Shown here piece by piece: positions 1,977-50,408 of a DNA stretch of 64,000 nt; position 1 is the stretch's first letter; every line of letters begins with the position of its first letter. Made by a program: the position numbers and the translations under genes. The notes beneath the pieces are model-generated. The model did not search any database. It worked only from the letters and a program-made list of their open reading frames with translations, and was not told the DNA's origin. Source of the stretch: Thermoleophilia bacterium (lineage in GTDB: Bacteria; Actinomycetota; Thermoleophilia; BMS3ABIN01); the NCBI GenBank assembly GCA_041658605.1, contig JBAZZU010000009.1, positions 6,032 to 70,031 on the forward strand. Direction: 5' to 3'.

Positions 1977-1982
1977 CCGGTC

Positions 1983-2291: not shown

Positions 2292-2366
2292 GGTAGCCTC
2301 CCTCTTTTCGGACGGGCCGGTCTCCTGGATTATTTCAAACCGCAACCGCGTCCCGGTCAGCGAACA

Positions 2367-3629
2367 TTATAACGGGTTATGCGTGTTTGGCACAGGCGTA
2401 GCCGGTCCGGGGTTCTGGCGCATGGCCATCAGAAGCACCAGCATGGCTGTCAGCCCCGTCGCCGCTCCAAAGAAGAACGGCGTCCGTGCTCCCGCCGCGT
2501 CCCATAAAAGGCCCGCGGTCAGGCTGGAAAAGAAAGTCAGTATGCCGGTAAGCGTATTGTAGGTGCCGAGAGCCGTGCCAGCAGCCTCACGCGGAGCCAT
2601 GTCGGCGACGAAAGCTTTCCCTACCCCTTCTGTCATCGCCATGTAGAGTCCATAGATGGTAAAGAGCGGCCAGACCGCCATTGAGTCACCGGCAAGAGCG
2701 AAGCCCAGATAGACCAGGGAAAAAACGAGGAAGCCCGCGGCGATCACGCGCCGCCGGCCGATGCGGTCCGACAGCGAGCCTGCCGGCATGGAAAAAACGC
2801 CGTATACAAGATTATAGATAACATAGGCAAAAACGGCTGCCATGGCTGAGAGCCCGAGGTCCCTGGCCCTGAGGATGATGAATGCGTCGCTGGAATTGCC
2901 GATTGCGAAGATGGCGCTGGCGAGCAGGAACAGTTTGAAGCGGCGGTCGAATTGCGACAGCGACAGGCGGGGCGGATGCCCGTGTGAGTGGTCGCGCTTT
3001 CTTTCGCGGATAAAAAAAAGACTGACTACGCCGAGTGCGCCGGGAATCGCCGAGAGGAGGAATATCGTGCGGTAGCGCTCCCCGATCAATGCCAGGGCTA
3101 CAAGCGCAAGCAGCGCCCCCAGCGAGGCGCCCGCCGTATCGGCCGCGCGGTGGAAGCCGAAGACACGGCCGCGGGTGGCCGGTTCCGATGAATCGGCGAT
3201 GAGCGCGTCGCGCGGCGCGACGCGAATCCCCTTCCCCAGCCGGTCGCCGAACCTCAGGGCGAGGACCATGGGCCAGGCAAAGGCGGCGGCCAGCAGCGGT
3301 TTGGCGACGGCGGAGATGCCGTACCCGATGATCGTCAGCGGCCTGCGCCGAGGCATGCGGTCCGACAGCCAGCCTGAGTAGACCTTGAGGATGCTGGCAG
3401 TGCTCTCAGCTATCCCCTCGATAAGGCCCACAACTGCGAAGGGAGCGCCGAGAACGGAGGTCAGGAAGAGCGGAACCAGCGGGTAGACGATCTCGCTGGA
3501 GAGGTCGGTAAGAAAGCTGGTTATTCCCAGGATGAAGACATTGCGGCTGATGCCGGGGACGGGAGATTCCGGATCGGGGTTTTTGGGAGGCGTCATATAA
3601 AAACTCCGGTTTCGACTTGAAGGGGACAC
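2367..3629 (-). CDS. MFS-family transporter
   Basis: About 12 predicted TM helices. Loop motif GWLSDRMPRRRP and a second DRIGRRR resemble MFS signature loops. The true start may be the internal Met (MTPPKNP) near 3596. Confidence 0.65.
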   Translation of the reverse strand: MSPSSRNRSFYMTPPKNPDPESPVPGISRNVFILGITSFLTDLSSEIVYPLVPLFLTSVLGAPFAVVGLIEGIAESTASILKVYSGWLSDRMPRRRPLTIIGYGISAVAKPLLAAAFAWPMVLALRFGDRLGKGIRVAPRDALIADSSEPATRGRVFGFHRAADTAGASLGALLALVALALIGERYRTIFLLSAIPGALGVVSLFFIRERKRDHSHGHPPRLSLSQFDRRFKLFLLASAIFAIGNSSDAFIILRARDLGLSAMAAVFAYVIYNLVYGVFSMPAGSLSDRIGRRRVIAAGFLVFSLVYLGFALAGDSMAVWPLFTIYGLYMAMTEGVGKAFVADMAPREAAGTALGTYNTLTGILTFFSSLTAGLLWDAAGARTPFFFGAATGLTAMLVLLMAMRQNPGPATPVPNTHNPL

Positions 3630-3699
3630 CTTACTTAATTCGTACCCTGACTTTCAATAACCTGTACACACTTTCATGAATTAAGTAAGGTGTCCCCGG

Positions 3700-4410
3700 T
3701 CAATGCGGCGGCATCTTCGCATGCTTGAGTATGTAGGCCAGCTCGTCGATGGCGGCTTTTTCGAGCGGCAGCTTCCTGAGACTGGCGACCGCTGATTTGA
3801 CGTCATATTTTACCCGCTTCAGCTCGACCCGACCGTCTTCGAGTACGGCATAACTCGCCTTGGCAATGCCGTCCCGCGGCTGGCCGACGCTGCCGACATT
3901 TACGAGCAGACGCCCCCCGATCTCTTTCATGAACGGCATGTGGGTATGCCCTGTCAGCAGGATGTCGGCCTGTGAAAGCTCGAGTTCGGCCTTCAGATCC
4001 GCATCGCTCGTATCCGGGAAGAGATAGCGGAAGAGATTGTCGCTAGGGGCCCCGTGCACCGCGCAAACTTTAAGCCCGTCGAGGTCGAGTGTTACGATGG
4101 TCTCAGGCCTGCCTGTCCAGTCGATCTGCTCACGGCTGAGCACCTGCCGCATATATTCGCGGGTGATCACGGACAGGTGTTTGAAGGCACTGCCGCAGGC
4201 ACAGTCGACCCAGAACGCCAGGGCGTTGTCGTGGTTGCCGCGGACACGAACCAGTGGTATTTCCAGCTTCCTGAGGTATTCGATGCAGGCGGCGGGGCCG
4301 GGGCCGTAATCGACGATATCACCCAGGCATATGACCGAGTCGCACGGCTCTTCGATAGCCATCAGCGCGTCGATGTTGGCATGGATATCGGAGATGACCA
4401 GCGTTCTCAA
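3700..4410 (-). CDS. Metallophosphoesterase (calcineurin-like, YfcE-type)
   Basis: ISDIHAN, GDIVDYGP, GNHD and GHTH motifs are the canonical metal-binding blocks of calcineurin-like phosphoesterases. Confidence 0.7.
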   Translation of the reverse strand: MRTLVISDIHANIDALMAIEEPCDSVICLGDIVDYGPGPAACIEYLRKLEIPLVRVRGNHDNALAFWVDCACGSAFKHLSVITREYMRQVLSREQIDWTGRPETIVTLDLDGLKVCAVHGAPSDNLFRYLFPDTSDADLKAELELSQADILLTGHTHMPFMKEIGGRLLVNVGSVGQPRDGIAKASYAVLEDGRVELKRVKYDVKSAVASLRKLPLEKAAIDELAYILKHAKMPPH

Positions 4411-4413
4411 GAG

Positions 4414-5901
4414 CTACTCCTGCCCCTGGGTGGCGTAATTGACGATCATCTGGTCTGTGAGCCATTCCACCGGAGCCTTGTCGTCGGTAAGGATAGTGCC
4501 TCCCGGCGGGACTTCCACAAGGCGCGGCGCCAGGAAACGCGCCAGTTTTGCCACTTCCGGTGGCATGACGCCGTCTCTGCCTGCAAGATCCGTCGCCAGT
4601 GTCTCCTCTCTGGTCGCTACGACCAGCTGATTGAACTGCCCGGTCTCGAACGTATATGCGGACGGGAAGACATCGCGCATCGTCGCCGCGATGGCATCGG
4701 CGACGGCGTTGTCCCCGGGGGTCTTTCCAACGTTAATAATGACGACGCCACGGTCGCTCAAGTGGTCGGAGATCTCACGGAAGAACTCGCGGGTCGTCAG
4801 GTAAAAAGGGATATAGGGTTGGCGGAAGGCGTCGACGGCGATGAGGTCCCAGGTCTTGTCGCTGGTCTTGAGGTAGGGCCGTCCGTCGGTCACGTGCAAT
4901 GTCAGGCCGGGCTCGTTCATGTCGAAGTACCTCCGGCCCGCCTCGACGACGTCGGGATCGATCTCAACCCCGTCGATTTTGATATCCGGGTAGAAATATG
5001 TCAGTTGCCGTGGTATGGTGCCGGCTGCGTTGCCGATGACGAGCGCGCTTTCGGGCGATTTGGCGGAAGCAAACCACGGGGCCACGCTGAAATAATCCCA
5101 GTAAGCTCCGGTCAGCAGCCGGTCCGGGTTATAGATGGAATGTACTGCCCAACCCTCGTTGAGTTTTAAATACCTGGTGCCGCTCTTCTCGGTGACCTGG
5201 ATGTAATGGTATGGAGACTCGGTTTCGAAGATGCTGCTGGCGTCCGGTTTGATCGCCCCCTGGGGTATTGCAATACCGGCAAGCAGGACAAGCGGGGCAC
5301 CGACGAAGATTCTGCGCCCCAGTCCTGCCGCTGAAACCGCCGCCAGCGCACCGGCGAAGACGAGCATCGTGTTCCTGGTCCCGATCCAGGGAATTAGCAA
5401 GAGCACCGGCAGGAATGTCCCCACGATGCTGCCGACCGTCGAGAGCGCGTAGAGGCTTCCGGAAACGTTGCCCGCGGTCTCGACCCCGGTCACCCGCAGG
5501 CGGATGGCGAACGGGGCCACCATCCCCAGGATGGTCACCGGAACGGCGAACAGGAGTACGGTGACGGCGAAAGATCCGATGAACGCGCCGGCTGAGATCT
5601 GCTCGAGTCCCCTGATGGCCAGCCCCATGATCGGGCGTGCGATAAAGGGAAGGATCGCGATGGACACGGCCGCCGCCATCGTCAGCGTGCATAGCAGGCG
5701 CGGTTCCGGCCTGCGGTCGGCGAGCCTGCCGCCGAGGTAGTAGCCCGCCGTGAGGTATATGAGGATCAGGCCGATCAGGTTGGCCCAGATGTAGAGGGAG
5801 TTGCCGAAGTACGGCGCCATCAGCCGCGAGGCCGACATCTCGGTGGCCATGGTCGTCATGCCGGCTGTGAATACCAGTATGTACAGCAGCGCGCGAGGCA
5901 A
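4414..5901 (-). CDS. Fused multi-TM domain / spermidine-synthase-like aminopropyltransferase
   Basis: N-terminal half has about 7 TM helices. C-terminal half has a SpeE-like fold (ALVIGNAAGT SAM-binding glycine-rich block, DLIAVDAF). This fused architecture is known in high-GC Gram-positives. Confidence 0.6.
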   Translation of the reverse strand: MPRALLYILVFTAGMTTMATEMSASRLMAPYFGNSLYIWANLIGLILIYLTAGYYLGGRLADRRPEPRLLCTLTMAAAVSIAILPFIARPIMGLAIRGLEQISAGAFIGSFAVTVLLFAVPVTILGMVAPFAIRLRVTGVETAGNVSGSLYALSTVGSIVGTFLPVLLLIPWIGTRNTMLVFAGALAAVSAAGLGRRIFVGAPLVLLAGIAIPQGAIKPDASSIFETESPYHYIQVTEKSGTRYLKLNEGWAVHSIYNPDRLLTGAYWDYFSVAPWFASAKSPESALVIGNAAGTIPRQLTYFYPDIKIDGVEIDPDVVEAGRRYFDMNEPGLTLHVTDGRPYLKTSDKTWDLIAVDAFRQPYIPFYLTTREFFREISDHLSDRGVVIINVGKTPGDNAVADAIAATMRDVFPSAYTFETGQFNQLVVATREETLATDLAGRDGVMPPEVAKLARFLAPRLVEVPPGGTILTDDKAPVEWLTDQMIVNYATQGQE

Positions 5902-17131: not shown

Positions 17132-17986
17132 TTAAAAATACCTCTCCAGCTCTTTACCCATCCCTGCCGGATCGAATGGCTGCCGTACGAGCGGTGGCCT
17201 GCCAGCCAGCAGCGGAATGGAATCTTCCATCACTGGACGATTGTTCCTGTAGATGACCCCGGTAGGTATCCTGTCGCCGAACTCCTGCGCCAGGTGGAAG
17301 GCGGCATCCCGATCGGTTGGATCATGGCCTTCGTCGACGCGGTAGACTCTCTCCCTGTACCAGGCGAGGGTGTTGATGCGGTTGAAGGAGACGCACGGCT
17401 GCAGGATGTCGAGCAGCGCGAAGCCCTTGTGCTCCATTGCCTTTACCATGAGCTCTTTCAGGAAAGCGCCATCACCGGTGAAACCGCGCGCCACGAAGCT
17501 CGCGTCCATGGCCACGGCCAGCGCCACCGGATTGAGCGGCTCGAGCAAGACGCCGAACGGCTGCGCCTTAGTGACGGTCCCCTCCTGCGTTGTAGGCGAT
17601 GCCTGTCCCTTGGTGAGTCCGTATACCTGGTTGTCATGAACAAAAAGGCTGATATCGTTGTTGCGCCGCATGGCGTGCAGCAGATGGTTTCCGCCCTCTC
17701 CATAGCAGTCGCCGTCACCCGCGATCGCGATGACGCGCATCTCGTGGTTTGCCAGCCGTATGCCGGTCGCTACCGGCAGGGTCCGGCCATGAAGGCCGTT
17801 GAAGGTATTGCCCCTGGTGTAATGCGGCAGCTTGCTCGACTGGCCGATTCCCGAAACCATGATGATCTGGTGCGGTTCGAGTCCCTGCGCTACCATCGCC
17901 TCCTTGAATGTCTTCAGGAGGGAGAAGTTGCCGCACCCCGGGCACCAGGACGGTTTCTGTCCCCTGTAGTCTTCTAGCTCAGGCAT
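17132..17986 (-). CDS. 2-oxoacid:ferredoxin oxidoreductase beta subunit (TPP-binding)
   Basis: WCPGCG N-terminal motif and the GDGD TPP-binding block, about 284 aa. Overlaps the alpha subunit gene by 8 nt. Confidence 0.75.
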   Translation of the reverse strand: MPELEDYRGQKPSWCPGCGNFSLLKTFKEAMVAQGLEPHQIIMVSGIGQSSKLPHYTRGNTFNGLHGRTLPVATGIRLANHEMRVIAIAGDGDCYGEGGNHLLHAMRRNNDISLFVHDNQVYGLTKGQASPTTQEGTVTKAQPFGVLLEPLNPVALAVAMDASFVARGFTGDGAFLKELMVKAMEHKGFALLDILQPCVSFNRINTLAWYRERVYRVDEGHDPTDRDAAFHLAQEFGDRIPTGVIYRNNRPVMEDSIPLLAGRPPLVRQPFDPAGMGKELERYF

Positions 17987-19694
17987 CGAGATACTCCAGA
18001 AGGTCGTCCAGCAGGAAAGGTCTGCCGTCGTATTTGTTCAGCAGGTGGGTGAACTCGTATCCGGTCTCCATGCGGACCAGCCGCGCGAACTGGGAGGTGG
18101 CGTTGTTCTCAACGCAGACGGTACGTCCGGCGTTGCGCAGAACAGCAAGGTAATCAAATTCTTCCGTACCTGGAAAAGGCCAGATCTGGCTGAAGTGCAG
18201 CATGGCTATTTTATGACTTTTCTGCATTACGTCAACCACTTCCTTCATGACTCCATAAGTAGAGCCCCAGCCGGTGATTACCGTCTCGGGATCGTCGGAA
18301 CCGTAGAGCAGCGGCGGTTCGATCTCCTTGCGGATCAGCGGCATCTTTTTCAGCAGGCGTTTCTCGACCATGCGGACCCGCGTTTCGGCGTCTTCCACGA
18401 GATGCCCGTCCTCGTCGTGTTCGTCGCTGTCGGTCACGACCAGGTGTCTGGAAGCGCCCGGTTCGGCCAGCGGTGATACCCCTGTTTCCGTGTACGCATG
18501 CCGTTTGTATTCATCCATGCCGGCGAGGACGTCCGCCCGCAGCCGGTAATCCACATATTTGATGCGCGAAGCGTCCAGGCTGTCCAGCGTCCACTCCGAA
18601 TCGACGAGGTACTGGTCGGAAATGATGATGGCGGGAACCTGGTATTTCTCGGCCAGGTCAAAAGCCTTGCCAGTCAGATAAAAGGACTGCTCGGGGCTGC
18701 CGGGCGCCATGATGATGCGGGGGAACTCCCCATGAGCCGCGTTGAGCACGTAGAGCAGGTCACCCTGTTCGGTGCGCGTGGGCAGGCCGGTGGCCGGCGC
18801 CGGCCTCTGTCCGACGAAGATGACAACCGGCGTTTCCGTCATCCCGGCCAGCGACAGGCCCTCGACCATGAGGGCGAAGCCGCCGCCCGCCGAGCCGGTC
18901 ATCGACCTGACGCCCGCGTAGGAGGCGCCGATCGCCATGTTGACGGCGGCGATCTCGTCCTCGGCCTGCTCTACCACAAGACTGTACTCCGTGCTTTTTT
19001 CGGCCATGAAATTAAGGATGCCGGTGGACGGCGTCATCGGATATGCGGCATAGAACCTGCAGCCGCTCATCAGTGCTCCCAGGCCGACCGCCGAGGCGCC
19101 GTCGAGCAGCATGCGCCGGCTCTTTTCCGGCGCGGACGGCACCACAAATCTGCATTGAGAGCAATGGCGGCTGGCGTATTGCGATCCGGCTTCGGCCGCG
19201 GCGATGTTCTGGTCGACGACCTCCTGCCCCTTCCTGCCGAAGGTCTCATTCAGGAGCTCTTTCAGAAGGTCCAGGTCCATTTCCAGCATCCCCATAACCG
19301 CGCCGACAGCGACCGTATTTTCCATCAGCCTTACGCCGGCGCTGTCGATGGCGATTTTTCTGAAGGGGATATCGAGGAACTCCGGGGCCTCGTAGCGCTC
19401 CTTGATGGTTTCCGCGTCGTATATGGCAAGTCCGCCGGGGGTCAGCGCGCCGCGATGCAGCTCGGCCGTGTTTTTATCCAGGGCAATCAGGATATCAACC
19501 AGCCGGCGTGACGAACTTACCGGGCCGTCGGCGAAGCGCACCTGATAATAATTATGGCCGCCCCGGATGCGCGACATGTAGTCCTGATGGGTGAAGACCT
19601 CGAACCCGTGCCGCGCGAAGAGCTTCGCCAGCACGGCGCCGATTGTCTGGAGCCCCTGGCCCGCCTGCCCGCCTATCCGTATCGTGTAATCCAT
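17979..19694 (-). CDS. 2-oxoacid:ferredoxin oxidoreductase fused gamma-alpha subunit
   Basis: N-terminal gamma-like domain (GGQAGQG) fused to the pyruvate/2-oxoglutarate flavodoxin/ferredoxin oxidoreductase alpha domain, about 571 aa. Confidence 0.75.
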   Translation of the reverse strand: MDYTIRIGGQAGQGLQTIGAVLAKLFARHGFEVFTHQDYMSRIRGGHNYYQVRFADGPVSSSRRLVDILIALDKNTAELHRGALTPGGLAIYDAETIKERYEAPEFLDIPFRKIAIDSAGVRLMENTVAVGAVMGMLEMDLDLLKELLNETFGRKGQEVVDQNIAAAEAGSQYASRHCSQCRFVVPSAPEKSRRMLLDGASAVGLGALMSGCRFYAAYPMTPSTGILNFMAEKSTEYSLVVEQAEDEIAAVNMAIGASYAGVRSMTGSAGGGFALMVEGLSLAGMTETPVVIFVGQRPAPATGLPTRTEQGDLLYVLNAAHGEFPRIIMAPGSPEQSFYLTGKAFDLAEKYQVPAIIISDQYLVDSEWTLDSLDASRIKYVDYRLRADVLAGMDEYKRHAYTETGVSPLAEPGASRHLVVTDSDEHDEDGHLVEDAETRVRMVEKRLLKKMPLIRKEIEPPLLYGSDDPETVITGWGSTYGVMKEVVDVMQKSHKIAMLHFSQIWPFPGTEEFDYLAVLRNAGRTVCVENNATSQFARLVRMETGYEFTHLLNKYDGRPFLLDDLLEYLDA

Positions 19695-19745: not shown

Positions 19746-21008
19746 TTAATGCGCCGCGCAGGAGACGCAGGGGTCATACGCGCGGACCAGGCATTCGATG
19801 CCCTCTATCAAACGGGAGGGCTCCCAGTCCCGGCGCGCGTCGACAAAATGGTTGATATCATCCTCGATATTTGTCAGATTCTGGGCGGTCGGGGTTATTA
19901 TGTTGTCGTCAGCGATGAGCCCTTCGGCGTCAAGCGTATACGAATGGTAGAGGGTGCCACGAGGCGCCTCGGTCGCCGCCACGCCGGTACCGGCTCGCAC
20001 CTGGATCTCTCCGGGCGTGGGATCACTGTCGAGGCCGGTTTCGAGCAGGCCGTCGATCAGGCTGATCGATTCCACCATGGCGTGCACCAGCTCCACGGAC
20101 TGACAGAAGCTGTTGAGGAATGTGTTGTAATTCGGGAAGGCATGGCCTGATTCGTCCAGTATGCTTCTGGCGCTGTCCTCCAGGAGCTCGTGGTTCATGT
20201 TCACCCTCGCCAGGGCCCCGGTAAAAAACCCTCTGCCGGCATGGACGCCGGCTTTTGCCGCCGTGCCGGGTATGACTTTCTCGCGCAGCGTCGCGCAGAA
20301 GTCTTCGGGCGTTGAACAGTAGCCCTCGCTGGAACAGATATCACCGCCGTAATAGGCGTACTCTTTCTCATCATGGAGGGCCAGATATGTGGTCTTGCGG
20401 GAAAAGTCCGGCATCGACAGCCCACCCACTATGCGTGCAAGTCTGGCGGCTTCGGGCAAGGCTTCCTCAAGGCGCCTGCGCAGATCGGCGAGCCGGGTCA
20501 CGGGCGGCAGATGGCTGAAACCGCCGACCCTGGTCGTTATCGGGTGAACCGAGCGCCCGCCGATAACATTGACCATGTCGTTGCCGAGCTTTTTCAACAG
20601 CAGCGCCGATGCAACTTCATCGGGGTGCGTATTCGCCATGGTGAAGGCGCTCTCGGCGCCGAGGAAATCTGGCAGAACGAGGAAATAGACATGGAGCGAA
20701 TGGCTTTGTATCCATTGCGCCAGGATCATCAGCCGGCGGAGGCTGTCCGTGACTGGTCTGGTTTTGACATCGAGGGCGGCCTCCACGGCTTTGAGAGCCG
20801 TGACATTGTGGACCGACGGGCAGACACCGCAGATGCGTGAGGCGATCGTGGGCGCGTCGAAGAATTTGCGGCCCCGCAGAAGGCCCTCGAAAAGCCGCGC
20901 CCCCTCCTCGTACTTGAGTCTGGCGGAGTGAACCCGGCCTTCGGCCACCATCACGGTGAGCGACGCGTGACCTTCGATCCTGGTGACGTGTTCGAGTTTG
21001 ATCTTCAA
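19746..21008 (-). CDS. Cytoplasmic group-3 [NiFe]-hydrogenase large (alpha) subunit
   Basis: RICGVCP N-terminal and DPCVSCAAH C-terminal Ni-ligand motifs with no cleavable extension, about 420 aa. The start is TTG at 21006-21008, with an upstream in-frame stop and no obvious SD. Confidence 0.75.
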   Translation of the reverse strand: MKIKLEHVTRIEGHASLTVMVAEGRVHSARLKYEEGARLFEGLLRGRKFFDAPTIASRICGVCPSVHNVTALKAVEAALDVKTRPVTDSLRRLMILAQWIQSHSLHVYFLVLPDFLGAESAFTMANTHPDEVASALLLKKLGNDMVNVIGGRSVHPITTRVGGFSHLPPVTRLADLRRRLEEALPEAARLARIVGGLSMPDFSRKTTYLALHDEKEYAYYGGDICSSEGYCSTPEDFCATLREKVIPGTAAKAGVHAGRGFFTGALARVNMNHELLEDSARSILDESGHAFPNYNTFLNSFCQSVELVHAMVESISLIDGLLETGLDSDPTPGEIQVRAGTGVAATEAPRGTLYHSYTLDAEGLIADDNIITPTAQNLTNIEDDINHFVDARRDWEPSRLIEGIECLVRAYDPCVSCAAH

Positions 21009-21951
21009 TGAAAGCCGATTATGAAATGATTATCAATACCAACCATTCAAATATTTTTGTGCGGCTTGAAATACCCCCACCGAGGATTCATAAACAAAAA
21101 GAGGAAAAAAGAGCCACAAGGTGAAACAGGAATGATCATCCATTGCGTTCTATTTTGGCGCACCCAAGTAAGAACAAAGGCCTAAAATTCGAAAAACTCA
21201 AGTGTAAGTTAAGACTTTAGTGATAGCTCGCTGTATTCATACAAAGCTTCAAAAGGAAGTTGGCAATCCTTTTCGATTTGTTCGCGGCCACCCTCTTCTC
21301 GATCAACTAAAGCAAATGCCATTACGGGGTCTAAACCTTCGTCACGACACGTATTTATTGCTTTTATAATTGAACCACCACTGGTGACTACGTCATCAAC
21401 TATAGCTACACGCATACCCTTTTCAACAGGACCTTCTATCCAAAGATGAGTCCCATGTTTTTTCGGTTCTTTTCTTACAATAAAACCTGAAACTGGGTAG
21501 TTCATCAGGAAGCTGCAAGTAACAATGCCGGCTACTATTGGATCTGCTCCAATGGTTAGCCCACCGACATTATGGACATTTTTCTCTTGAAGCTTAAAAA
21601 CCAACAGCCTGGATAAAAGCGTTAGTCCTTCAGGATCTAGTGTTATCTTTTTGCAATCGAAGTAGTGATCGCTTTTTTTCCCGGATGAAAGCGTAAACTC
21701 ACCTTCTAGGTAGGCTTTTTCTCTGATGAGTTTACCTAAGCGTGATTTTATTGTTTCAAAATCGTTCAACTGGGGTTTTGCTGATTGGAAAGCATACTGT
21801 TTAATGGTGGCAGTATTTAATGCCAATTCAGCCTCCTCCTAGGGAATTTCTATCTTTTTAAGAGTATCTTAAAAAACTTGGCATGCCAAGGCTTCAGCTC
21901 ATATTGGTATTCTGTGCTAATAGTAGCAGCCCTTTAAAAAGCACACACACA
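21009..21951. other. AT-rich insertion (compositional island) between the hydrogenase delta and alpha genes
   Basis: Long A/T runs and AT-rich codons in the PRTase gene and both flanks, contrasting with GC-rich neighbours on each side. Confidence 0.6.
21209..21826 (-). CDS. Type I phosphoribosyltransferase (orotate-PRTase-like) encoded in an AT-rich insertion
   Basis: VAIVDDVVTSGGSI PRPP-binding motif. Gene and flanks (about 21010-21950) are visibly AT-rich against GC-rich surroundings. Confidence 0.6.
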   Translation of the reverse strand: MALNTATIKQYAFQSAKPQLNDFETIKSRLGKLIREKAYLEGEFTLSSGKKSDHYFDCKKITLDPEGLTLLSRLLVFKLQEKNVHNVGGLTIGADPIVAGIVTCSFLMNYPVSGFIVRKEPKKHGTHLWIEGPVEKGMRVAIVDDVVTSGGSIIKAINTCRDEGLDPVMAFALVDREEGGREQIEKDCQLPFEALYEYSELSLKS

Positions 21952-22755
21952 CTAATGATTTTCTTCGCGCCACTGATCGAAAAGCTCCTGGTATTCGGGC
22001 ACAAGGGAACAGTACTTCTGCAGCTTGCGGACGAGGTCGGGATACGTGGTATCGCGCGACATGATCTGAATAGCCGATTTCAGGTTCGGCTCCTCGGTCG
22101 GCCCGCGGCAGCCGTCACACGGAACTCCCATGGAAGGGCAGACTACTCCGCAACCGGCCCGCGTGATGGGTCCAAGGCATGGTTGCCTCTCGATCAGCAG
22201 GCAGCGGTTTTCCAGCACCTTGCATTCGACGCATTGTGGATAGGCTTTCAGCTGCGGTGTCCGCCCCGCGATCAGTGCGGTCAGTGTCTCCATGATCTCC
22301 CACTTGCTGGCGGGGCATCCCCGGAGCTGAAAATCGACGCGGACGTAGTTGGAAACAGGATATATTTCAAGAGTGTCCAGGTCCTCCATGCCCTTGTAGA
22401 CATACTTCTTCATGTCCTTGAGGTCATGGAAATGCTGTGCCGCCGGGACTCCGCCAAAGGAAGCGCAGCTTCCCAGCGCCACCAGCAGTTTCGAGTTGCG
22501 CCTGACGTCCCGCAACACCTCGGGCTCGAAGGACCTCGCGGGCACCCCTTCCACGAAGGCCACGTCGAAAGGGCCGTCGGTATTGTACGCCCTCGCCATG
22601 GGAAAGTGCAGGATGTCAACCGCACGGGCAATGGCAAGGAGGTCGTCCTCGAAGTTGAGGAACTCGAGCGCGCAGCCAGCGTCGGAGGTGAGCGAAAAGA
22701 TGCCGACCTTCAGCCTGCCCCGATGAGCCGCGGATGAACCGTCCCGGTATGTCAT
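21952..22755 (-). CDS. Group-3 [NiFe]-hydrogenase small (delta) subunit
   Basis: NuoB/hydrogenase-small-subunit-like Cys pattern (GSCASFGG, GCP, multiple CxxC). The ATG at 22755 overlaps the upstream gene stop as ATGA. Confidence 0.7.
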   Translation of the reverse strand: MTYRDGSSAAHRGRLKVGIFSLTSDAGCALEFLNFEDDLLAIARAVDILHFPMARAYNTDGPFDVAFVEGVPARSFEPEVLRDVRRNSKLLVALGSCASFGGVPAAQHFHDLKDMKKYVYKGMEDLDTLEIYPVSNYVRVDFQLRGCPASKWEIMETLTALIAGRTPQLKAYPQCVECKVLENRCLLIERQPCLGPITRAGCGVVCPSMGVPCDGCRGPTEEPNLKSAIQIMSRDTTYPDLVRKLQKYCSLVPEYQELFDQWREENH

Positions 22756-23615
22756 CTCAGCGCTGACGATATCCCCCTGATCTGTTCGATTGAAAGGACC
22801 GGCCCCTGGCGGCAGGTATAAAAACTCTCCACGACGCAATGCTCACACTTGCCGACGCCGCATCGCATGTTCCTCTCCAGGGATACATAGATCTGCGAAT
22901 CGGCAAAACCGATTTCCTGCAGCCGGTCGAGGACGAACCTGAACATCACCGGCGGACCGCAGATCAGCACCTGCGTATCGATCGGCGAGAGGTCGACGAC
23001 ATCGAAAAGCGAGGTGATGAGGCCGGTTCTTCCATGCCAGTCCGGCGTGGCCTCCTCGACGGCAATCTCAAGGCGGCAGCACTGGCGCCACTCTTCATAT
23101 TCGTCCCGGAAAAGCAGCTGGTCCGGGCTTCTGGCTCCATACAGCACCGTCAGCCCTCCGAATTCCTTTTCCAGGCAGACGGCGTTCTTTATGGCGCTTC
23201 GCAGGGGGGAAAGGCCGATGCCTCCGGCGATAAAGACCAGGTTCTGGCCACCCATTTCTGAAAGGGGAAAGCCCCGTCCGTAGGGTCCCCTCACCCAGAC
23301 CGTATCGTCCTGCGCGAGCCGGTGCAGGGCCCGGGTGACATTGCCGGTCTCACGCACGCAAAGCTCGAATGTTCCCTTCTGGGTCGGCGGTGAGCATATC
23401 GCGAAGGGCGCCTCGCCGATGCCCAGCAGGGATGTCTGAACGAACTGGCCGGCGGAGAACGAAAATGACTCGCGTAGCTGCGGGTCCTTGAACTGCAGCA
23501 CGAAGTGACGGTTCCCGGGTGTAAGCAGCCGTGTTTCCAGCACCCGCGCCGGGCTGGGGATATACTCGTTCAGCCGCGTTTCCCCGAAAGAGTTACCCGC
23601 AGCTTCAGCGTCCAT
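22752..23615 (-). CDS. Hydrogenase gamma subunit: FAD/NAD(P)-binding oxidoreductase with C-terminal [2Fe-2S] (HydG-like)
   Basis: Ferredoxin-NADP-reductase-like fold motifs plus C-terminal CGVGKCEHC cluster, as in sulfhydrogenase gamma and PyrK-like subunits. Confidence 0.7.
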   Translation of the reverse strand: MDAEAAGNSFGETRLNEYIPSPARVLETRLLTPGNRHFVLQFKDPQLRESFSFSAGQFVQTSLLGIGEAPFAICSPPTQKGTFELCVRETGNVTRALHRLAQDDTVWVRGPYGRGFPLSEMGGQNLVFIAGGIGLSPLRSAIKNAVCLEKEFGGLTVLYGARSPDQLLFRDEYEEWRQCCRLEIAVEEATPDWHGRTGLITSLFDVVDLSPIDTQVLICGPPVMFRFVLDRLQEIGFADSQIYVSLERNMRCGVGKCEHCVVESFYTCRQGPVLSIEQIRGISSALR

Positions 23616-24711
23616 CGGTCACCTCCAGCACGCTTTTGATAACCTGGCGCGGATCTATCGCCGCGGGGCAGAAATGGAAGCAGGCGCCGCAGCCCGAGCA
23701 GCCGGCGCGATCGAACGTTTCCTGCATCCTCATGAACTTGTGTGAGAAGCGGTACCAGATGCGCTCGGATCGGGCCTCGCGGAAGTTATGGCCGCCGGCA
23801 ACGCGCGCAAAACCGATGAGCTGGCAAGAATCCCAATGCCTCAGCCGGTGTCCGGCGGTCGGGTCCAGGCCGGTCTCGTCCCGGGTATAGAAGCAGTAAC
23901 ACAGGGGGCAGACAATGGTGCAGTTGCCGCATCCCAGGCAGCGGTCGGCCAGTTCATCCCACATGACGGCCCCCATCGACTGTCTGATCTTTTCCGGCAG
24001 CGCCGCCAGGGGCCAGCGTATCTCGTTCCCGCTTTCTTCACCGGGAGGCGCCGAAATCCCGGCAGGTTCCTCCAGGACACTCACGGGAGCGCCGGCGACA
24101 AGCCTGGCGCCGGCCTCTGTGCCGACGATCATGCGCAGGTCGCCGTTTGATGCCCCCATGGACGCCGGCACAAGGAAAAGGTCAAAATCGCCCGGACCCA
24201 CATGATCATGACCTGTTTTTTCACAGAAACATCCTTCTGTGCGTTCGCAGGGAACACCGATGGTGATCGTTCTGCGACGCCGCTCCATGAACGGGAAGTC
24301 AGGCCGGTCGTTCTCCATGACGGTGGCAAGCAGCCTGTCGGCGGAAAGCTCGCAGACATGGAGGCCGAACAGGATGGTATCTTCCGCGTGGAGGTCCTGC
24401 AGAAGAGAGCCGCCCTCAAAGCTGAAAAGTGTCTCCGACGGTGGCAGTAATGCCTTTTTGAAGGGAATCACAGTCCGGCTTTGAGGGAGGTCGACACCTG
24501 TGAGGCCCAACGGCGACACATCCTCGAAGATACGGTTACCGGCCTTGTACGACGGCACCAGCACCCTGTAGTCGGATGAAAGATCCATCAGCCACCGCCG
24601 CAACTCCGGCGGCAGGGTGCTTCCCGGAAAGATGTTTCCCGCTTTTTTGACCATCCACAGCCTTTCATCCGGTTTATTCATCGTGCTGCTTCGTGTTGGC
24701 GTCGTACACAA
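23605..24711 (-). CDS. Hydrogenase beta subunit: 4Fe-4S protein (HydB / AsrA-like)
   Basis: CLGCGNCTIVCPLCYC and CSGCGACFHFCP ferredoxin-type motifs. First gene of the beta-gamma-delta-alpha set. The true start may be the internal ATG at 24681. Confidence 0.65.
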   Translation of the reverse strand: MCTTPTRSSTMNKPDERLWMVKKAGNIFPGSTLPPELRRWLMDLSSDYRVLVPSYKAGNRIFEDVSPLGLTGVDLPQSRTVIPFKKALLPPSETLFSFEGGSLLQDLHAEDTILFGLHVCELSADRLLATVMENDRPDFPFMERRRRTITIGVPCERTEGCFCEKTGHDHVGPGDFDLFLVPASMGASNGDLRMIVGTEAGARLVAGAPVSVLEEPAGISAPPGEESGNEIRWPLAALPEKIRQSMGAVMWDELADRCLGCGNCTIVCPLCYCFYTRDETGLDPTAGHRLRHWDSCQLIGFARVAGGHNFREARSERIWYRFSHKFMRMQETFDRAGCSGCGACFHFCPAAIDPRQVIKSVLEVTDGR

Positions 24712-28238: not shown

Positions 28239-28583
28239 TTAGAACGATGCGGGATGGTCGCTGACGAACCTCAGCAGGTCCTGATTTCCTACCAGCACGA
28301 GGAAAAGATCGACGGTCAGAGGAGCGAACACCAGTGCCTGGCCGGGCAGCTCGAGCGTCATCCTGGGAAGATCCGTGCCCAGTTCACAGGCAAGGCTGGC
28401 GGCTGAAGACATGGCGGAGGCCGTATGGGCGGCGATGGCCTCCAGATTGCTGTTATCTCCGGTCGAAGCGACCAGCAGCCCGTCAGCCGAGACGAGCGCC
28501 GCCGCCGCGATTCCTTCGATGTCCATGTACGGCGTCAGCACGTTATCCAGAGCGCGCGACGCTGTTCTTCCGCTATCCGTCAT
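28239..28583 (-). CDS. Roadblock/LC7 domain protein (MglB-like)
   Basis: About 114 aa with the alpha-beta roadblock pattern (IEGIAAAALVSADGLLVAS). Immediately downstream of parB. Confidence 0.55.
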   Translation of the reverse strand: MTDSGRTASRALDNVLTPYMDIEGIAAAALVSADGLLVASTGDNSNLEAIAAHTASAMSSAASLACELGTDLPRMTLELPGQALVFAPLTVDLFLVLVGNQDLLRFVSDHPASF

Positions 28584-29482
28584 CGTTCCTTCTCCAGGAC
28601 TTCTATCAGCTTGTCAAGATCATCCGCGTTTGAGAATTCCATTTCGATTCTTCCTCCCTTCCCGGTCCATCTGACCTTGACCGGGAGACGGAAAGCTGAA
28701 TAAAGAGCGTCAGTCGTCTCGTCCATCAACTCCTGACCTACCGGGAAATTCTGGGGCTCTTTCAATTTGCTCCGGGGAGCATCCTCCTTTTTCGACAGCT
28801 CCTCGGCCTGCCTGACCGACAGTCCTCCCTTGACGATCCTGCGCGCAAGCTTTCGCTGTCGCGTCCTGTCGGAAACGGAAAGCAGGGCGCGACCATGTCC
28901 CTCGGTCAATTTAGCCTGCTCGATCAATTGCTGAACATCATCGGGAAGGTCGAGCAGCCTGATGGTGTTGGCTACGGCTGAGCGGCTGCGGCCCAGTTTA
29001 TTGGACAGCATTTCCTGGGTGATACCGTAATCTTCCTGAAGGTTGGCGTAAGCCCTGGCCGTGTCGATCGGGTTGAGGTCCTCACGGCTGATGTTTTCGA
29101 TAAGCGCGAGCTCGAGGGACTCCGCGTCCCCGGCTTCCCGGATCAGAGCGGGCACTGTCTCAAGACCGGCGATCCGCGCCGCGCGCCAGCGTCTTTCTCC
29201 GGCCACGAGCTCGTAACCGTCTCCCCGCTTGCGAACAACCACCGGCTGGACCAGGCCGACGGCGCGGATCGACTCCGCAAGCTCCTCGAGCGCGTCATCG
29301 TCGAAGATCGTACGGGGCTGATGCGGGTTGCCGGTAATTTGACTTAAAGATAATACGTGATACGGTGACTCATGCCCGGGCGAAACAGGTGCTTGACCTA
29401 CAGTATCATCCTTGTTTGTACTTATCAGCGCGGACAGGCCTCGGCCGAGGCCCTTGCTCGCCGGTTTCTTTTCGTTATTCAC
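28580..29482 (-). CDS. parB: Chromosome partitioning protein ParB/Spo0J
   Basis: GLGRGLSALI box, HTH region, ParB/Sulfiredoxin fold motifs. GTG start at 29482 preceded by GGAGGTGG. Overlaps parA stop. Confidence 0.8.
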   Translation of the reverse strand: MNNEKKPASKGLGRGLSALISTNKDDTVGQAPVSPGHESPYHVLSLSQITGNPHQPRTIFDDDALEELAESIRAVGLVQPVVVRKRGDGYELVAGERRWRAARIAGLETVPALIREAGDAESLELALIENISREDLNPIDTARAYANLQEDYGITQEMLSNKLGRSRSAVANTIRLLDLPDDVQQLIEQAKLTEGHGRALLSVSDRTRQRKLARRIVKGGLSVRQAEELSKKEDAPRSKLKEPQNFPVGQELMDETTDALYSAFRLPVKVRWTGKGGRIEMEFSNADDLDKLIEVLEKER

Positions 29483-30263
29483 GTTCGACCACCTCCGTAG
29501 CCAGATCAAAGTAGGCGTCAGAGCCCGCGCAGGTAGGGTCGTAACGCGAAATCGGTTTACCAAAACTCGGCGCTTCGCTCAACCTGATGTTGCGAGGTAT
29601 CACGGTCCTGTAGGTAAGCTCGGGGAAATGGGAGCGCACCTCATCGACGACCTGGGTGGAAAGTCTGGTGCGCGAGTCGAACATGGTCATCAGCAGGCCG
29701 GCTATCTGCAGCCCGGGGTTCAGTCCCTGGCGTACAAGCTCGACGGTCTGCAGCAGCTGGCCGAGTCCTTCCAGGGCGTAATATTCACATTGGACCGGTA
29801 TTATGAGCTTATCAGCAGCGACAAGCGCGTTAAGTGTTATGAGCCCCAGCGAAGGCGGGCAGTCAACAAAAATGTAGTCAAAATTGCCCCTGACTGTTGC
29901 CAGTGCGTCCGCGAGCACGAACTCCCGGCGCTCGCGTCCGGGCAATTCGACTTCGGCGCCGGCAAGGTCAGGAGTGGACGGGACGAGAACCAGCTGGTCG
30001 ACCTGGGTGGGCAGAATAGCCGAGTCAATTGACGCCCCATTGGTAAAGACATCGTAAATAGTGCTGTTACCAGCATAATCGTGTATTCCAAGACCATGGG
30101 TGGCATTGCATTGGGGGTCAGAATCAACAAGAAGGACCGCCGCGCCAGCCTCAGCCAGGCACACGGCAGTGTTTACACAGGTGGTAGTCTTGCCGACGCC
30201 GCCCTTCTGATTTGCGATGGCGTAGATCTTGCTTAATCCGGATCTTGCGTTTAAATCCTGCAT
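29475..30263 (-). CDS. parA: ParA/Soj chromosome partitioning ATPase
   Basis: Deviant Walker A KGGVGKTT, about 262 aa. Confidence 0.85.
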   Translation of the reverse strand: MQDLNARSGLSKIYAIANQKGGVGKTTTCVNTAVCLAEAGAAVLLVDSDPQCNATHGLGIHDYAGNSTIYDVFTNGASIDSAILPTQVDQLVLVPSTPDLAGAEVELPGRERREFVLADALATVRGNFDYIFVDCPPSLGLITLNALVAADKLIIPVQCEYYALEGLGQLLQTVELVRQGLNPGLQIAGLLMTMFDSRTRLSTQVVDEVRSHFPELTYRTVIPRNIRLSEAPSFGKPISRYDPTCAGSDAYFDLATEVVERE

Positions 30264-30295
30264 AAAGGCAGTCTATCAGAAGCACCGGACGGTGA

Positions 30296-31000
30296 CTAGA
30301 AATCGCCGAGCGGCCTTTTTCTGGCTACGCCTGGCCTGCGCGGAAAGCGTTCCGGCGTGGGTGAAGTTTTGGAAAAAACCCAGATATGGAGGTTCTTTGC
30401 GTCGGAATAGGGCTTTACAGACCCGATGCGGACCAGGGTTCCCCCAAGGAGCTCAGCCACCTGACAAGCCTGTTTTTCATCACCGGGGCTGCGGTCTCCA
30501 CGCTGCAGCAGCGCCGAACCGCCTGTTTTCAGTAACGGAAAACAATACTCCAGAACCTCCGCTATCGAACCGACGGCTCGCGCAAAGGCAATATCGAAAG
30601 TAGCTCTCATTTCTGATCGGCCCGCGTCTTCGGCCCGCGAGGCAAGGACAAAGGCGTTGTCGAGCCCAAGTTTCATTACTGTTTTCTCAATAAACTCGCA
30701 TTTCTTTCGCCTGGCCTCAATCATGGTGACGTTCAGGGATGGGACCGCGATTGCGAGCGGCAACCCCGGAAAGCCGGCGCCGCTGCCGATGTCGACCGCA
30801 GATTCAGCCGACTTCGTCTCTGGGAAATCGGCAAGGCCGAGACTGTCGCGAAAATGTATCGCTACTATATTTGCCGGCTCTGTGACCGCGGTGAGGTTTC
30901 TGTCAGACTGCTCTGTAAGCAAATCAAGCAGTTTCTCAAATGAGGCGATCTGCGAAGCGTCAAGGTGGAAATCGGATCCCAGGGAGGATTGCCAGGTCAT
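30296..31000 (-). CDS. rsmG: 16S rRNA (guanine527-N7)-methyltransferase RsmG (GidB)
   Basis: SAM-MTase motif [15 protein letters not shown] and conserved position after mnmG. Confidence 0.8.
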
Positions 31001-32889
31001 CGTCCCGCCGCCTTTATATAAAGGGAAAGCACGGAAATGTCAGATGGAGAAATACCCGCTATACGCGACGCCTGGCCCAGGGAGGCAGGCCGCATTCGCG
31101 CCAGCTTCTCCAGCGCCTCGTTAGCGATTCCTTTCAGATCGTTAAAAAGGAAATCCTCGGGAATCATCATTTCTTCCAGGTAACGCCTTCTATCAATATC
31201 TCGCAATTGGCGGACGATATATCCGGCGTATTTTGTTTCTATCTCTGCCCTCAGGACCGTATCCGCTGAAAAGCGGGAAATATCATGTGGAAGTAGTGGC
31301 AGCAGGTCATTGATGCCGATTTCAGGCCGTCGGAGTAGCTGAGAGACCGCCTGTGCTTCAGAAACCGGTGAACTATCCAGTCCCGCGAGCACGGAATTGG
31401 TCCTGTCATCTGGTTGAAGACGGGTTGAATCGAGCAGTTCCAGCAGCAGTTTGAGGTCGGTTTGTGATGCTCTTATCGATTCCATGTGGGCATCCGGGAC
31501 TAGACCCAGAGAATTACCGGCAGGGCTGAGGCGGGCGTGGGCATTGTCATGTCTGAGCAGCAGCCGGTATTCCGCTCTTGATGTGAACATGCGATAGGGC
31601 TCATCGACACCCTTTGTCACAAGGTCATCGATAAGAACACCAATATAGGCTTCATTCCTTCCGAGGACCAGGGGCTCGTCGTTTCTGGAACTCAGCGCGG
31701 CGTTGATTCCAGCCATTAGTCCCTGCGCGGCGGCTTCTTCGTAACCACTGGTTCCATTTATCTGCCCCGCGAGGAAAAGGCCGGAAATAGCTTTGGTTTC
31801 GAGTGAAAGCTTAAGCTGGCTTGGGATTACGTAATCGTATTCGACCGCATAACCGGGACGCATAATGCGGGCTGTTTCCAGGCCGGGGGTCGCCTTGATG
31901 ACCTTCTCCTGAACCCAGACGGGCAGACTGGTCGTAAGGCCCTGAAGGTAAAGCTCCTTTGTGCGGCGACCTTCAGGCTCGATGAAGATAGGGTGCCTGG
32001 GGCGATCCGGGAAGTTCATGACCTTGCGGTCAATCGATGGGCAATACCTCGGGCCCTTTCCGCTGATAGAGCCGGTTTTGATCGGTGACAAATGGAGGTA
32101 TTTTCTGATCACCTCGTGGGTATTCTCATTGGTGTATGTCAGGTAACAGGGGATCTGTCCGGTGGAATCGGCTTCTGAAAAGGGTGAAAAGGTCTGAATG
32201 TCCTCATCTCCGGGTTCCTGCTTGAGGCTTGATAGGTCTATCGACCGCGCGTCAATCCGGGGCGGAGTCGCGGACTGGAAACGCCCTAGTTCGATTCCAT
32301 TCGCTGAAAGGCTCGTAGAAAGTCCGATTGCCGGTGGTTCTCCCATACGGCCGGCGGGGAAACGCATTTCGCCTACGACTATCTTTCCATTAAGAAAGGT
32401 CCCGCAGGCAAGAACGACAGAGCGGCACTGGATACTGCTCCCATCTGTCAGCTCGATACCCCTCAATGTTTCACGTGAAACATTGAGGCCTGCCACCTGC
32501 CCTTCGAGGATCCTCAGGTTCGGTTCTGAGGCGAGTGCCCGCTTCATATTGTCTTCATAGACCTTTTTGTCTGCCTGGGCGCGAAGCGCCCTGACAGCGG
32601 GGCCTTTGCTCGTGTTGAGCATTTTCATCTGTATGAAAGAACGGTCGGTGTTGCGGCCCTGCTCACCGCCGAGCGCATCTATCTCGCGAGTGAGTTGTCC
32701 TTTCCCAACCCCGCCAATCGCGGGGTTGCACGGCATCAGGGCTATCTTTTCAAGGCTTAGAGTCAACAGGAGGGCAGAGCACCCCATTCGCGCGGCCGCC
32801 AGGGCCGCCTCGCAACCAGCATGCCCGCCGCCAACGATGATCACATCGATTGAGCCAAGGCTATTTTTAGATTCGTCACTCTGATTCAT
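30997..32889 (-). CDS. mnmG: tRNA uridine 5-carboxymethylaminomethyl modification enzyme MnmG (GidA)
   Basis: FAD-binding [11 protein letters not shown]-terminus, about 630 aa, full-length GidA architecture. Confidence 0.9.
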
Positions 32890-47263: not shown

Positions 47264-47456
47264 TATGCTCAGATCTGTAATATTTTTCAGTTTATTTGTA
47301 GCGAATGTACAAACTCAAGCATAGCAGTTGGAAAAGCACAGGAAAAAATGGGGGGCCTCACGTTTAAATGTGAATTATACCCGGGATAATGCAACGCAGC
47401 AGGCTACAGGTACCGGCTTCCTTAAATCAGCCACGCATGGCCGTTAAATCGCCGCT

Positions 47457-49667: not shown

Positions 49668-49720
49668 GCAGTGAACAGGTTACCCAGAATGACTTCACAA
49701 ACAATCAAGAGGAGAAGGAA

Positions 49721-50188: not shown

Positions 50189-50240
50189 AGTAGTCATACG
50201 TGATCAAATGGCTATTTTGCGTATGTGAAAGGAGCACGAT

Positions 50241-50378: not shown

Positions 50379-50408
50379 AAAACATATAAGTCAGTAAGTG
50401 ATTCGAGA

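Follow-up and report, generated by a model that had tools for sequence, protein, structure and literature searches.

How did a strongly AT-rich pyrE gene come to lie between two subunit genes of a hydrogenase cluster? This question is raised by a stretch of 64,000 nucleotides from a Thermoleophilia bacterium (assembly GCA_041658605.1, contig JBAZZU010000009.1, positions 6,032 to 70,031), which is referred to below as the window and whose own coordinates are used throughout. A preliminary description of this DNA had read the AT-rich segment as a recent horizontal insertion that split the operon of a four-subunit hydrogenase. Our analysis revealed that the gene order is old and that, as seems likely, only the allele is new: the resident pyrE cassette, about 946 bp long, probably gave way in its own slot to a strongly divergent, AT-rich allele from this same family, specific to the clade, which is a xenologous displacement. 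We take the whole cassette to have been replaced in place because the divergence of pyrE is discordant with that of its neighbors, because the homology break is discrete, and because the window is the lineage that changed. The event is of an ordinary kind, with one unexplained compositional twist.

The AT-rich block and its borders

The block, the genes that border it and its three parts are as follows.

21952..22755, minus strand: gene for hydrogenase delta (small subunit); Pfam Oxidored_q6, best NCBIfam matches ShyD/HydD
21009..21954, minus strand: AT-rich pyrE cassette, made up of leader, gene and 3' spacer, bounded by the delta stop and the start codon of alpha
21827..21951, minus strand: leader from delta to pyrE, 125 nt, (TG)5 and then CTTTTT
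21209..21826, minus strand: pyrE, orotate phosphoribosyltransferase (OPRTase) of 205 residues with a TTG start; TIGR00336, PDB 2p1z and 5hkf
21009..21208, minus strand: 3' spacer from pyrE to alpha, 200 nt, 40% T, within the AT-rich block
19746..21008, minus strand: gene for hydrogenase alpha (catalytic [NiFe] subunit) with a TTG start; Pfam NiFeSe_Hases, best NCBIfam match sulfhydrogenase HydA/ShyA

The GC content of the window was 55-62% nearly throughout and dropped from 0.59-0.62 to 0.39-0.42 between about 21000 and about 22000, the kilobase 21001-22000 being the lowest of all (40.1%). A windowed check gave the block 21009-21954 a GC content of 39.7%, compared with a mean of 57.6% (standard deviation 3.4, minimum 44.5) in all other 946-bp windows (z = -5.2), which bears out the roughly 0.9 kb of strongly AT-shifted DNA that the preliminary description had placed between delta and alpha. 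As that description had also noted, a single open reading frame (ORF), PyrE-like and on the same minus strand, lies inside the block; its GC content at third codon positions (GC3) is 0.33, as against 0.72-0.77 in six neighbor genes, and its overall GC content is 0.405.

The closest relatives of the window locus are L003, L012 and L019. Upon alignment with L012 in 60-nt windows, nucleotide identity was 0.8-0.9 as far as the delta stop (21955), fell to 0.05-0.70 within 21954-21009 and was 0.9 again from the first alpha codons. The composition break and the homology break therefore coincide, since identity collapses exactly over the block. The delta stop codon itself is TAG at 21954-21952. Right after it stands the (TG)5 run (21942-21951), followed by CTTTTT, where L003 and L012 have TGTGCTTT; the left breakpoint may for this reason sit a few bases past the delta stop.

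None of the usual marks of a mobile element was found at the block. As had been described earlier, there were no significant flanking repeats (only short 7-nt matches of the AATGATT/AATCATT type, which are common in this AT-rich stretch), no integrase or recombinase among the neighboring genes and no tRNA anywhere in the 64-kb window; we also found no target duplication, att site, terminal repeat or direct repeat, and no Rfam match for the block.

Could the block be an artifact? A chimera, in which a low-GC piece was spliced into a GC-rich contig, has to be considered because the source consists of metagenome assemblies, and one contig, L002, ends 29 nt into alpha, within a stretch that is near-identical among all relatives; this end point suggests an assembly-graph branch from co-occurring relatives in the same sample. 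Against this, the block sequence and both junctions recur identically in two further assemblies (L001 and L002; three in total) that were made by different methods. L001 (ENA, MEGAHIT k141) has 1 mismatch in 20.6 kb relative to the window. L002 (Logan, 1375 bp, equal to 20980-22354 of the window) is 100% identical and holds 403 nt of delta, the full block and 29 nt of alpha, so that the delta junction and the whole block lie in one contig. To arise as a chimera, the sequence would moreover require long exact overlaps at both of the places where, over about 10 nt, composition shifts by 20 points. We regard this explanation as very improbable.

The product of the pyrE gene

The window PyrE scored 126.1 bits against NCBIfam TIGR00336, for which the cutoff is 106.8; P0056 and P0005 scored 113.4 and 125.2 bits, respectively. 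The best solved relatives were the Corynebacterium diphtheriae protein 2p1z and the Mycobacterium tuberculosis OPRTase 5hkf (E-value 1e-27 for both). The phosphoribosyl pyrophosphate (PRPP) motif VAIVDDVVTSGGS, the catalytic loop VRKEPKKHGT (K..K.HG) and the N-terminal SGK.SD.Y.D motif (LSSGKKSDHYFD) align with 2p1z, 5hkf and all relatives. By its score and these motifs the ORF is a genuine, intact member of the PyrE family that looks like a functional OPRTase. It shares with the actinobacterial OPRTases the short type and all three motifs, and it differs from them in an N-terminal extension of about 20 residues relative to relatives of 184 residues, in an AT-driven composition (18 Lys versus 8 Arg), and in its position in a hydrogenase/2-oxoacid oxidoreductase cluster instead of among pyr genes.

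The preliminary description had proposed checking whether the best matches of the protein are in low-GC taxa. They are not: the best matches are GC-rich Thermoleophilia/Actinobacteria PyrE proteins of the same locus, at 56-69% identity. Relative to the clade the window PyrE is about equidistant, with 62-68% identity to every relative.

Two other accounts of the gene were tried and rejected. Phosphoribosyltransferase (PRTase) domains occur in the anti-phage systems retron type III-A and Shosta (ShosT), and a defense role was considered; the PADLOC model PRTase_III-A matched with 14 bits only (E-value 0.006) and over the PRPP loop alone, which is no significant model match. Neither a retron reverse transcriptase or noncoding RNA nor a ShosA partner was found beside pyrE, where the neighbors are hydrogenase and kor genes. 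The earlier remark that nothing here supports defense thus stands. A pyrimidine-sparing mRNA composition does not describe the gene either, as A and T are both raised, and the purine fraction is 0.54 versus 0.50-0.52 in the neighbors.

Gene order in related loci

Relatives were collected by searching one genome per species and the JGI metagenomes with the alpha subunit, together with the contigs of the best PyrE matches. The order delta-pyrE-alpha was found in ten related loci (L003-L008, L010, L012, L013 and L019), which come from Thermoleophilia or Actinomycetes metagenome-assembled genomes (MAGs) where named. As far as the contigs reach, all ten have the full order beta-gamma-delta-pyrE-alpha-korA-korB, in which korA and korB encode a 2-oxoacid:ferredoxin oxidoreductase. 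Because these ten loci have the same order, we conclude that pyrE between delta and alpha is ancestral in this Thermoleophilia-type clade.

This result bears directly on the reading with which the preliminary description had started, that a foreign PRTase gene was newly inserted and split an intact beta-gamma-delta-alpha operon. That reading draws on the sharp, same-strand compositional island between delta and alpha and on a distant relative, L014 (alpha 69% identical; 1267-5266), which has contiguous beta-gamma-delta-alpha genes without pyrE, with 1 nt between the delta stop and the ATG of alpha and GGGGGAA upstream. It is contradicted by the clade, in which every one of the ten loci with the korAB neighborhood and hydrogenase genes has pyrE in the exact slot; L014 lies in a different, unrelated genomic neighborhood, and no integrase, tRNA or target duplication accompanies the block. 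This synteny refutes the new-insertion reading. A target-site duplication, with CATT tetramers at the edges and a deletion that would restore a TTGA overlap of delta stop and alpha start, was rejected as well, since relatives have a pyrE cassette and no such overlap. What stands of the earlier proposal is the horizontal origin, in that the composition is foreign and the allele was not inherited vertically from the close relatives; what falls is the insertion into a contiguous operon. An ancestral arrangement of similar composition had been named as the finding that would speak against it. The arrangement is indeed ancestral, and the composition is not similar: pyrE GC3 in the ten loci is 0.64-0.79, host-like and within about 0.07 of either flank.

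The alpha gene of the window begins with MKIKLEHVTRIEGH... exactly at the edge of the block; stop codons lie in frame 8-9 codons ahead of it, the 20 nt preceding the TTG contain nothing like GGAGG, and the unusual start described earlier was thus confirmed. Such starts are common to the clade. Alpha begins with TTG in L004, L007 and L013 and with GTG in L003, L005, L006, L008, L010, L012 and L019, mostly without a Shine-Dalgarno (SD) sequence; L003, L012 and L019 have a weak GGAG about 10 nt upstream. As the relatives share the pyrE slot and the non-ATG starts of alpha, the block neither split the operon nor created the TTG. The suggestion that it replaced the native initiation region of alpha holds in one part, since the 200 nt upstream are foreign and lack an element GGTTTGAAAAG...CGGCAAAAG described below; the TTG/GTG start and the usual lack of an SD are native.

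In four further cases (L011, L015, L016/L017 and L021) pyrE is followed directly by korA, or by korAB where the contig extends, and no hydrogenase genes are present. L011 (Gaiellales MAG GCA_003599855.1; 5790-8312) is the only one of these with enough upstream sequence, which consists of parAB, a roadblock-like gene, PBP1A, CsoR and a small membrane ORF, followed by pyrE-korAB and an M54 peptidase gene; this upstream neighborhood is the same as in the window. For loci of the L011 type this leaves two histories, namely loss of the hydrogenase genes that flanked pyrE or their gain around it. We also observed a pyrE family member in L020 (392-1548) that is directly followed by an M54 (archaemetzincin-like) peptidase gene without korAB, so the neighborhood 3' of pyrE is variable too. 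A literature search found no paper on a pyrE within a Thermoleophilia hydrogenase cluster.

Discordant divergence of the window allele

Comparison of the window with L003 and L012 gave the following protein identities.

Delta: 93% (L003) and 91% (L012)
PyrE: 65% (L003) and 65% (L012); proportion of synonymous differences 0.86-0.88 (saturated), nonsynonymous divergence (dN) 0.31
Alpha: 90.5% (L003) and 89.8% (L012); relative to L003, dN 0.05 and synonymous divergence (dS) 0.67
KorA: 90% (L003) and 90% (L012)
KorB: 86% (L003) and 87% (L012)

Relative to L003 and L012, the flanking genes showed dS of 0.47-0.88 and dN of 0.04-0.07. Between L003 and L012 themselves, pyrE was ordinary and diverged like its neighbors (dS 0.31, dN 0.028). 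We then applied an additivity test, which is insensitive to a rate acceleration on the window branch: had the gene descended from an ancestor A in common with L003, any reference locus X would give a d(window,X) - d(window,L003) equal to d(A,X) - d(A,L003). The expected value for a sister of the L003 PyrE was +0.24 to +0.36, and the observed value was -0.06 to +0.01. By bootstrap, the 95% interval of the difference between expectation and observation excluded zero for all six reference loci. On these distances the test rejects descent of the window PyrE from the allele of the sister lineages. In a neighbor-joining (NJ) tree the window PyrE branched off basally within the clade, its branch being long (0.224, median 0.08), and rare residue states among 65 in-group sequences showed L003 to share 2 with the window and 7-9 with its true relatives. 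A sister relation had at one point been read from shared residues (GEF, GGLT, DPVM and DC) in a 9-sequence alignment; this was rejected, as the states are non-specific among the 65 sequences.

These data also speak to a reading without any transfer, in which the resident pyrE decayed toward AT and evolved faster in place under a local mutation regime or relaxed or altered selection. The substitution pattern speaks for it: at sites conserved in the relatives, 60 of 77 changes in the window go from GC to AT (G>A 26, C>T 19, C>A 12), and a weaker bias of this kind is seen in L003 (33 of 48). AT-shifted pyrE genes in GC-rich flanks also recur, in L015, L016 and L021, each time with the tract matching the cassette boundaries, and the searches revealed no AT-rich genome with this gene family. 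The distances do not agree with it. The window PyrE is no nearer to the sister lineages than to distant ones, which by additivity an acceleration on one branch cannot yield; dN and dS are both elevated, in agreement with a longer separation and not with relaxed constraint; and lineage-specific residues shared with L003 and L012 do not exceed background. The leader adds a further objection, given in the next section, and we consider decay in place improbable.

Leader, 3' spacer and direction of the change

The elements read in the leader are listed below.

21928-21920, minus strand: candidate -10 element TGCTACTAT, read from the sequence
21890-21871, minus strand: 5-bp hairpin and T-run, terminator-like, within chance expectation
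21852-21846, minus strand: candidate -10 element TAGAAAT, which aligns with GGTAAT in L016 and GATAAT in L015
21840-21832, minus strand: SD AGGAGGAGG, five bases before the pyrE TTG

Around its strong SD the leader shares 19 of 20 nt with the leader of L016, AAT(T/G)CCCTAGGAGGAGGCTG, a match with z = 8.7 that none of 500 shuffles equaled. No similarity was found between the window leader and the ordinary leaders, those of L003 and L012 included. This pattern is the further objection to decay in place mentioned above. A structured RNA or attenuator was rejected for both flanking segments, with no Rfam match and folds no better than those of shuffles (leader z = -0.39, spacer z = 0.45).

Ordinary cassettes carry a conserved, extended -10-like sequence, TGATAnnAT, between the delta stop and pyrE. 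We found it at 5284-5300 in L004, at about 4455-4470 in L005, at about 5330-5345 in L006, at about 5958-5970 in L008, at about 470-480 in L003 and at about 470-500 in L019, and also in L010 and L012. Its position in L004, L007 and L013, across the stop codon of delta and 7 nt ahead of the pyrE ATG, suggests that the pyrE mRNA is leaderless in these three loci.

A second conserved element stands on the other side of pyrE. The sequence GGTTTGAAAAG...CGGCAAAAG upstream of alpha is common to L003, L012 and L019 and to the more distant L004, L005, L006 and L010; in alignment A1 (L003 1131-1221) it appears as GGTTTGAAAAG...CGGCA(A/G)AAG about 30-55 nt before the alpha start, and it is absent from the corresponding positions 21009-21078 of the window. 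This element may be a promoter or an operator, or it may mark where the pyrE unit ends on its 3' side. In L015 and L016, where korA comes next, pyrE is followed by a related motif, GGTTTA.

The pre-alpha element gives the change its direction. Because L003, L012 and L019 keep an element of distant relatives that the window lacks, we take the window to be the changed lineage. Under the reverse order, the AT-rich cassette would be the older one in this sub-clade, and the replacement would be the GC-normal one that L003, L012 and L019 carry. The somewhat greater divergence of the L003 and L012 PyrE from other GC-normal alleles (70-76% identity, compared with 72-82% among the others) would suit that order of events, as would the fact that the AT-rich allele was sampled in one lineage only, so that polarity rests on few characters. 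The retained spacer element argues the other way, and so does the identity of the L003 PyrE to other loci, 70-76%, which matches that of alpha (71-78%) as vertical descent predicts. A reversed direction is unlikely, if a little less so than decay in place.

Other AT-shifted cassettes and the search for a donor

Three further cassettes of the family proved to be AT-shifted in GC-rich surroundings.

L015 (1-837): pyrE GC 0.40, GC3 0.36; flank GC3 0.86-0.87
L016/L017 (2263-3149 / 94-980): pyrE GC 0.48, GC3 0.49; flank GC3 0.73
L021 (290-1072): pyrE GC 0.53, GC3 0.57; flank GC3 0.76-0.86

The AT-rich tract stops at the neighboring genes in each of them. The GC3 deficit relative to the flanks is 0.40 in the window, 0.51 in L015, 0.24 in L016/L017 and about 0.2-0.3 in L021. 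All three have a strong SD, as does the window, and an in-frame upstream start gives L015 and L016 an apparent N-terminal extension; the start of L021 is uncertain. Strong-SD cassettes were thus AT-shifted within GC-rich flanks in 4 of 4 cases and ordinary cassettes in 0 of about 12. The in-group proteins P0056 and P0058 have an AT-type amino-acid composition like that of the window PyrE, and it was their contigs that led to this pattern.

The proteins tell a more limited story. Among themselves the PyrE proteins of L015, L016 and L021 share 68-73% identity; with ordinary alleles they reach about 62% at most, and with the window PyrE 56-57%. The core of the window PyrE is no nearer to the AT-shifted group than to ordinary alleles in any segment. 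A mosaic pyrE, with a 5' part of the L015/L016 type and a 3' part of the ordinary type, was rejected because segment-wise identities showed no switch. By these comparisons the window cassette belongs to the same locus family, in which it branches deeply, and its specific tie to the AT-shifted group is limited.

A phage, plasmid or viral origin was examined and rejected. The best phage match reached at most 44% identity (cyanophage and marine-virus pyrE) and the best listed plasmid match at most 41%; the sole IMG/VR match was 33% over 48 residues, and the leader motif was not present in viral contigs. Among 5.8 billion protein clusters there was no AT-rich genome with this pyrE family.

The composition is the part of the event that has no ready explanation. 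KorA and PyrE are each 73% identical between L015 and L016, an equal divergence that would be compatible with inheritance of the cassette from a common ancestor; if that is so, it has been AT-rich for a long time. The cassette is also most AT-rich in the most GC-rich host, a pattern that simple amelioration of a transferred gene does not predict. The AT shift could be explained by repeated transfer from an unsampled reservoir or by a maintaining force. It is possible, though we hold it doubtful, that the window cassette belongs to a rare lineage defined by a strong AGGAGG SD, an N-terminal extension and a homologous leader, in which AT-richness is intrinsic and maintained and not left over from a donor. 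If so, some force would hold a housekeeping gene 20 GC points under its genome over the long term, and the cassette would move between genomes as a unit. Candidate forces would then be selection for rare codons or low expression, binding of an AT-DNA silencer, or exclusion of the heterologous allele from GC-biased gene conversion.

Proposed course of the replacement

We propose that pyrE was for a long time a small unit of its own inside the cluster, in the order beta-gamma-delta-[pyrE]-alpha-korA-korB, and that leader, coding sequence and 3' spacer were swapped together. This would leave a mosaic cluster with one breakpoint no more than a few bases from the delta stop and the other at the start codon of alpha. 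Recombination may have proceeded via conserved sequence at the cassette edges, where the beginning of alpha or the end of delta could have served as an anchor. The first 20-25 nt of alpha are near-invariant across the clade and form the most conserved nucleotide stretch of the region, and the 3' end of delta is conserved as well. If the donor was without delta and alpha, at least one junction would be illegitimate.

Several findings weigh against replacement by an allele from elsewhere. Composition and homology break within a few bases of the gene boundaries, which is a tight fit for homologous recombination. No homologue of the 3' spacer was detected, local alignment with ten related spacers giving z of at most 1.5. 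The phylogeny was built by distances only (NJ and the additivity test), without a composition-aware maximum-likelihood method, and the window PyrE is compositionally biased, with a FYMINK/GARP residue ratio of 1.2 compared with a clade median of 0.64. A donor did not come to light: the 5.8 billion protein clusters contain nothing above 69% identity except the same population, phage, plasmid and viral collections contain no close relative of this pyrE, and the leader match with L016 (19/20 nt) is the only link. The cassettes of L015, L016 and L021 adjoin korA and have neither delta nor alpha beside them, so they offer no flanking homology for the window slot. With these points included, we still judge replacement of the whole cassette to be the probable explanation.

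Expression after the swap can be outlined as follows. The pyrE gene would be an autonomous transcription unit nested in the cluster, transcribed in the window from a -10-like element inside the new leader and translated from the strong SD. With its native upstream region gone, alpha may depend on transcripts that read through from pyrE, or on a new promoter within the AT-rich spacer. A CATAAT sequence stands 9 nt before the alpha TTG in the T-rich spacer; used as a promoter, it would give a leaderless or near-leaderless mRNA. Alpha is under purifying selection relative to L003, with dN/dS of about 0.07, which is an average over the whole time since the split and not since the swap.

The hydrogenase cluster and its surroundings

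The remaining genes of the cluster are the following.

23605..24711, minus strand: gene for hydrogenase beta (HydB-like, 4Fe-4S dicluster); Pfam Fer4_22, 100.8 bits
22752..23615, minus strand: gene for hydrogenase gamma (HydG-like; FAD/NAD-binding, PyrK-like Fe-S); Pfam NAD_binding_1, DHODB_Fe-S_bind and FAD_binding_6
17132..19694, minus strand: korA and korB, 2-oxoacid:ferredoxin oxidoreductase pair; Pfam POR, POR_N, TPP_enzyme_C and PFO_beta_C

By Pfam, all four subunit types of group 3b are present in the window, namely the Fe-S beta, the FAD/NAD gamma, the small delta and the [NiFe] alpha subunit, and the alpha translation has both metal-binding motifs, RICGVCPSVH (RxCGxCxxxH) and DPCVSCAAH (DPCxxCxxH). 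The NCBIfam scores (264 bits for HydA/ShyA, 173/159 bits for ShyD/HydD) are far under the equivalog cutoffs of 460-880. From its domain content and best family matches, the hydrogenase would be of the four-subunit sulfhydrogenase (group 3b) type, below equivalog thresholds. The overlapping junctions described earlier were found again, 11 nt between beta and gamma, and 4 nt between gamma and delta if delta starts at 22755, as called on L001. The true start of beta is likely 24654, according to a call of 349 residues on the identical contig L001 (24654-23605). The korAB genes are conserved downstream neighbors, syntenic in related loci.

Some observations on the surroundings may be added. The Fe-S domain of gamma is typical of PyrK, the electron-transfer subunit of dihydroorotate dehydrogenase B, and pyrE lies two genes away; this may be a coincidence or a trace of how pyrE reached the cluster. 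The genes gidA, gidB, parA and parB and a roadblock/LC7-like gene were observed at 28239-31826 on the minus strand (L001 gene calls). Since no more than about 10 kb separates these gid/par genes from the cluster, the chromosomal origin region is probably close to the locus. A second, milder AT-shifted region (47200-51600, GC 0.40-0.53) lies between a tRNA U5-methyltransferase-like gene and tatC; it contains an ORF-free part at 48027-48725 (GC 0.40-0.47) and several ORFs without a Pfam match, and it has no Rfam match.

Relation to known systems and significance

Xenologous gene displacement in situ and mosaic operons are concepts reportedly set out by Omelchenko, Makarova, Wolf, Rogozin and Koonin in 2003. 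The present case agrees with them in that one gene of a conserved array was swapped by a homologue of the same function, with vertical neighbors and discordant divergence. It differs in that the incoming allele comes from the same clade-specific PyrE family and not from a distant phylum, in that both intergenic spacers were swapped, and in its GC3 of 0.33 versus 0.73 with no donor named. With genomic islands and mobile cassettes, such as integron cassettes, pdif modules and passengers of insertion sequences, the block has in common that it is a short, deviant one-gene segment with sharp borders, but it has no recombinase and no attC/dif-like or inverted terminal repeats, and its slot is filled by a homologue in relatives.

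The hydrogenase resembles the group 3b enzymes HydBGDA/ShyBGDA of Pyrococcus furiosus in its four subunit types and domain content, and L014 has the canonical order. It differs from them as a distant bacterial relative (264 bits versus 700-880 bits), in having pyrE between delta and alpha in the window and ten loci, with the two adjacent only in L014, and in an alpha gene with a TTG/GTG start, mostly without an SD, that is not translationally coupled to delta.

The locus corrects a tempting misreading, as an island that resembled a fresh insertion turned out to be an old gene order with a new allele. It provides a clean, base-resolved example of whole-cassette displacement in a conserved cluster of an uncultured actinobacterial lineage, and it documents a Thermoleophilia-type clade in which the genes for the small and the large subunit of a group-3b-like hydrogenase have pyrE between them. 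In this clade, translation of the catalytic subunit is therefore not coupled to that of delta. Because a conserved region upstream of the catalytic subunit was removed in the window lineage, its hydrogenase expression may differ from that of the sister lineages. Finally, the AT shift of these pyrE cassettes in every GC-rich host bears on how bacterial GC content is maintained.

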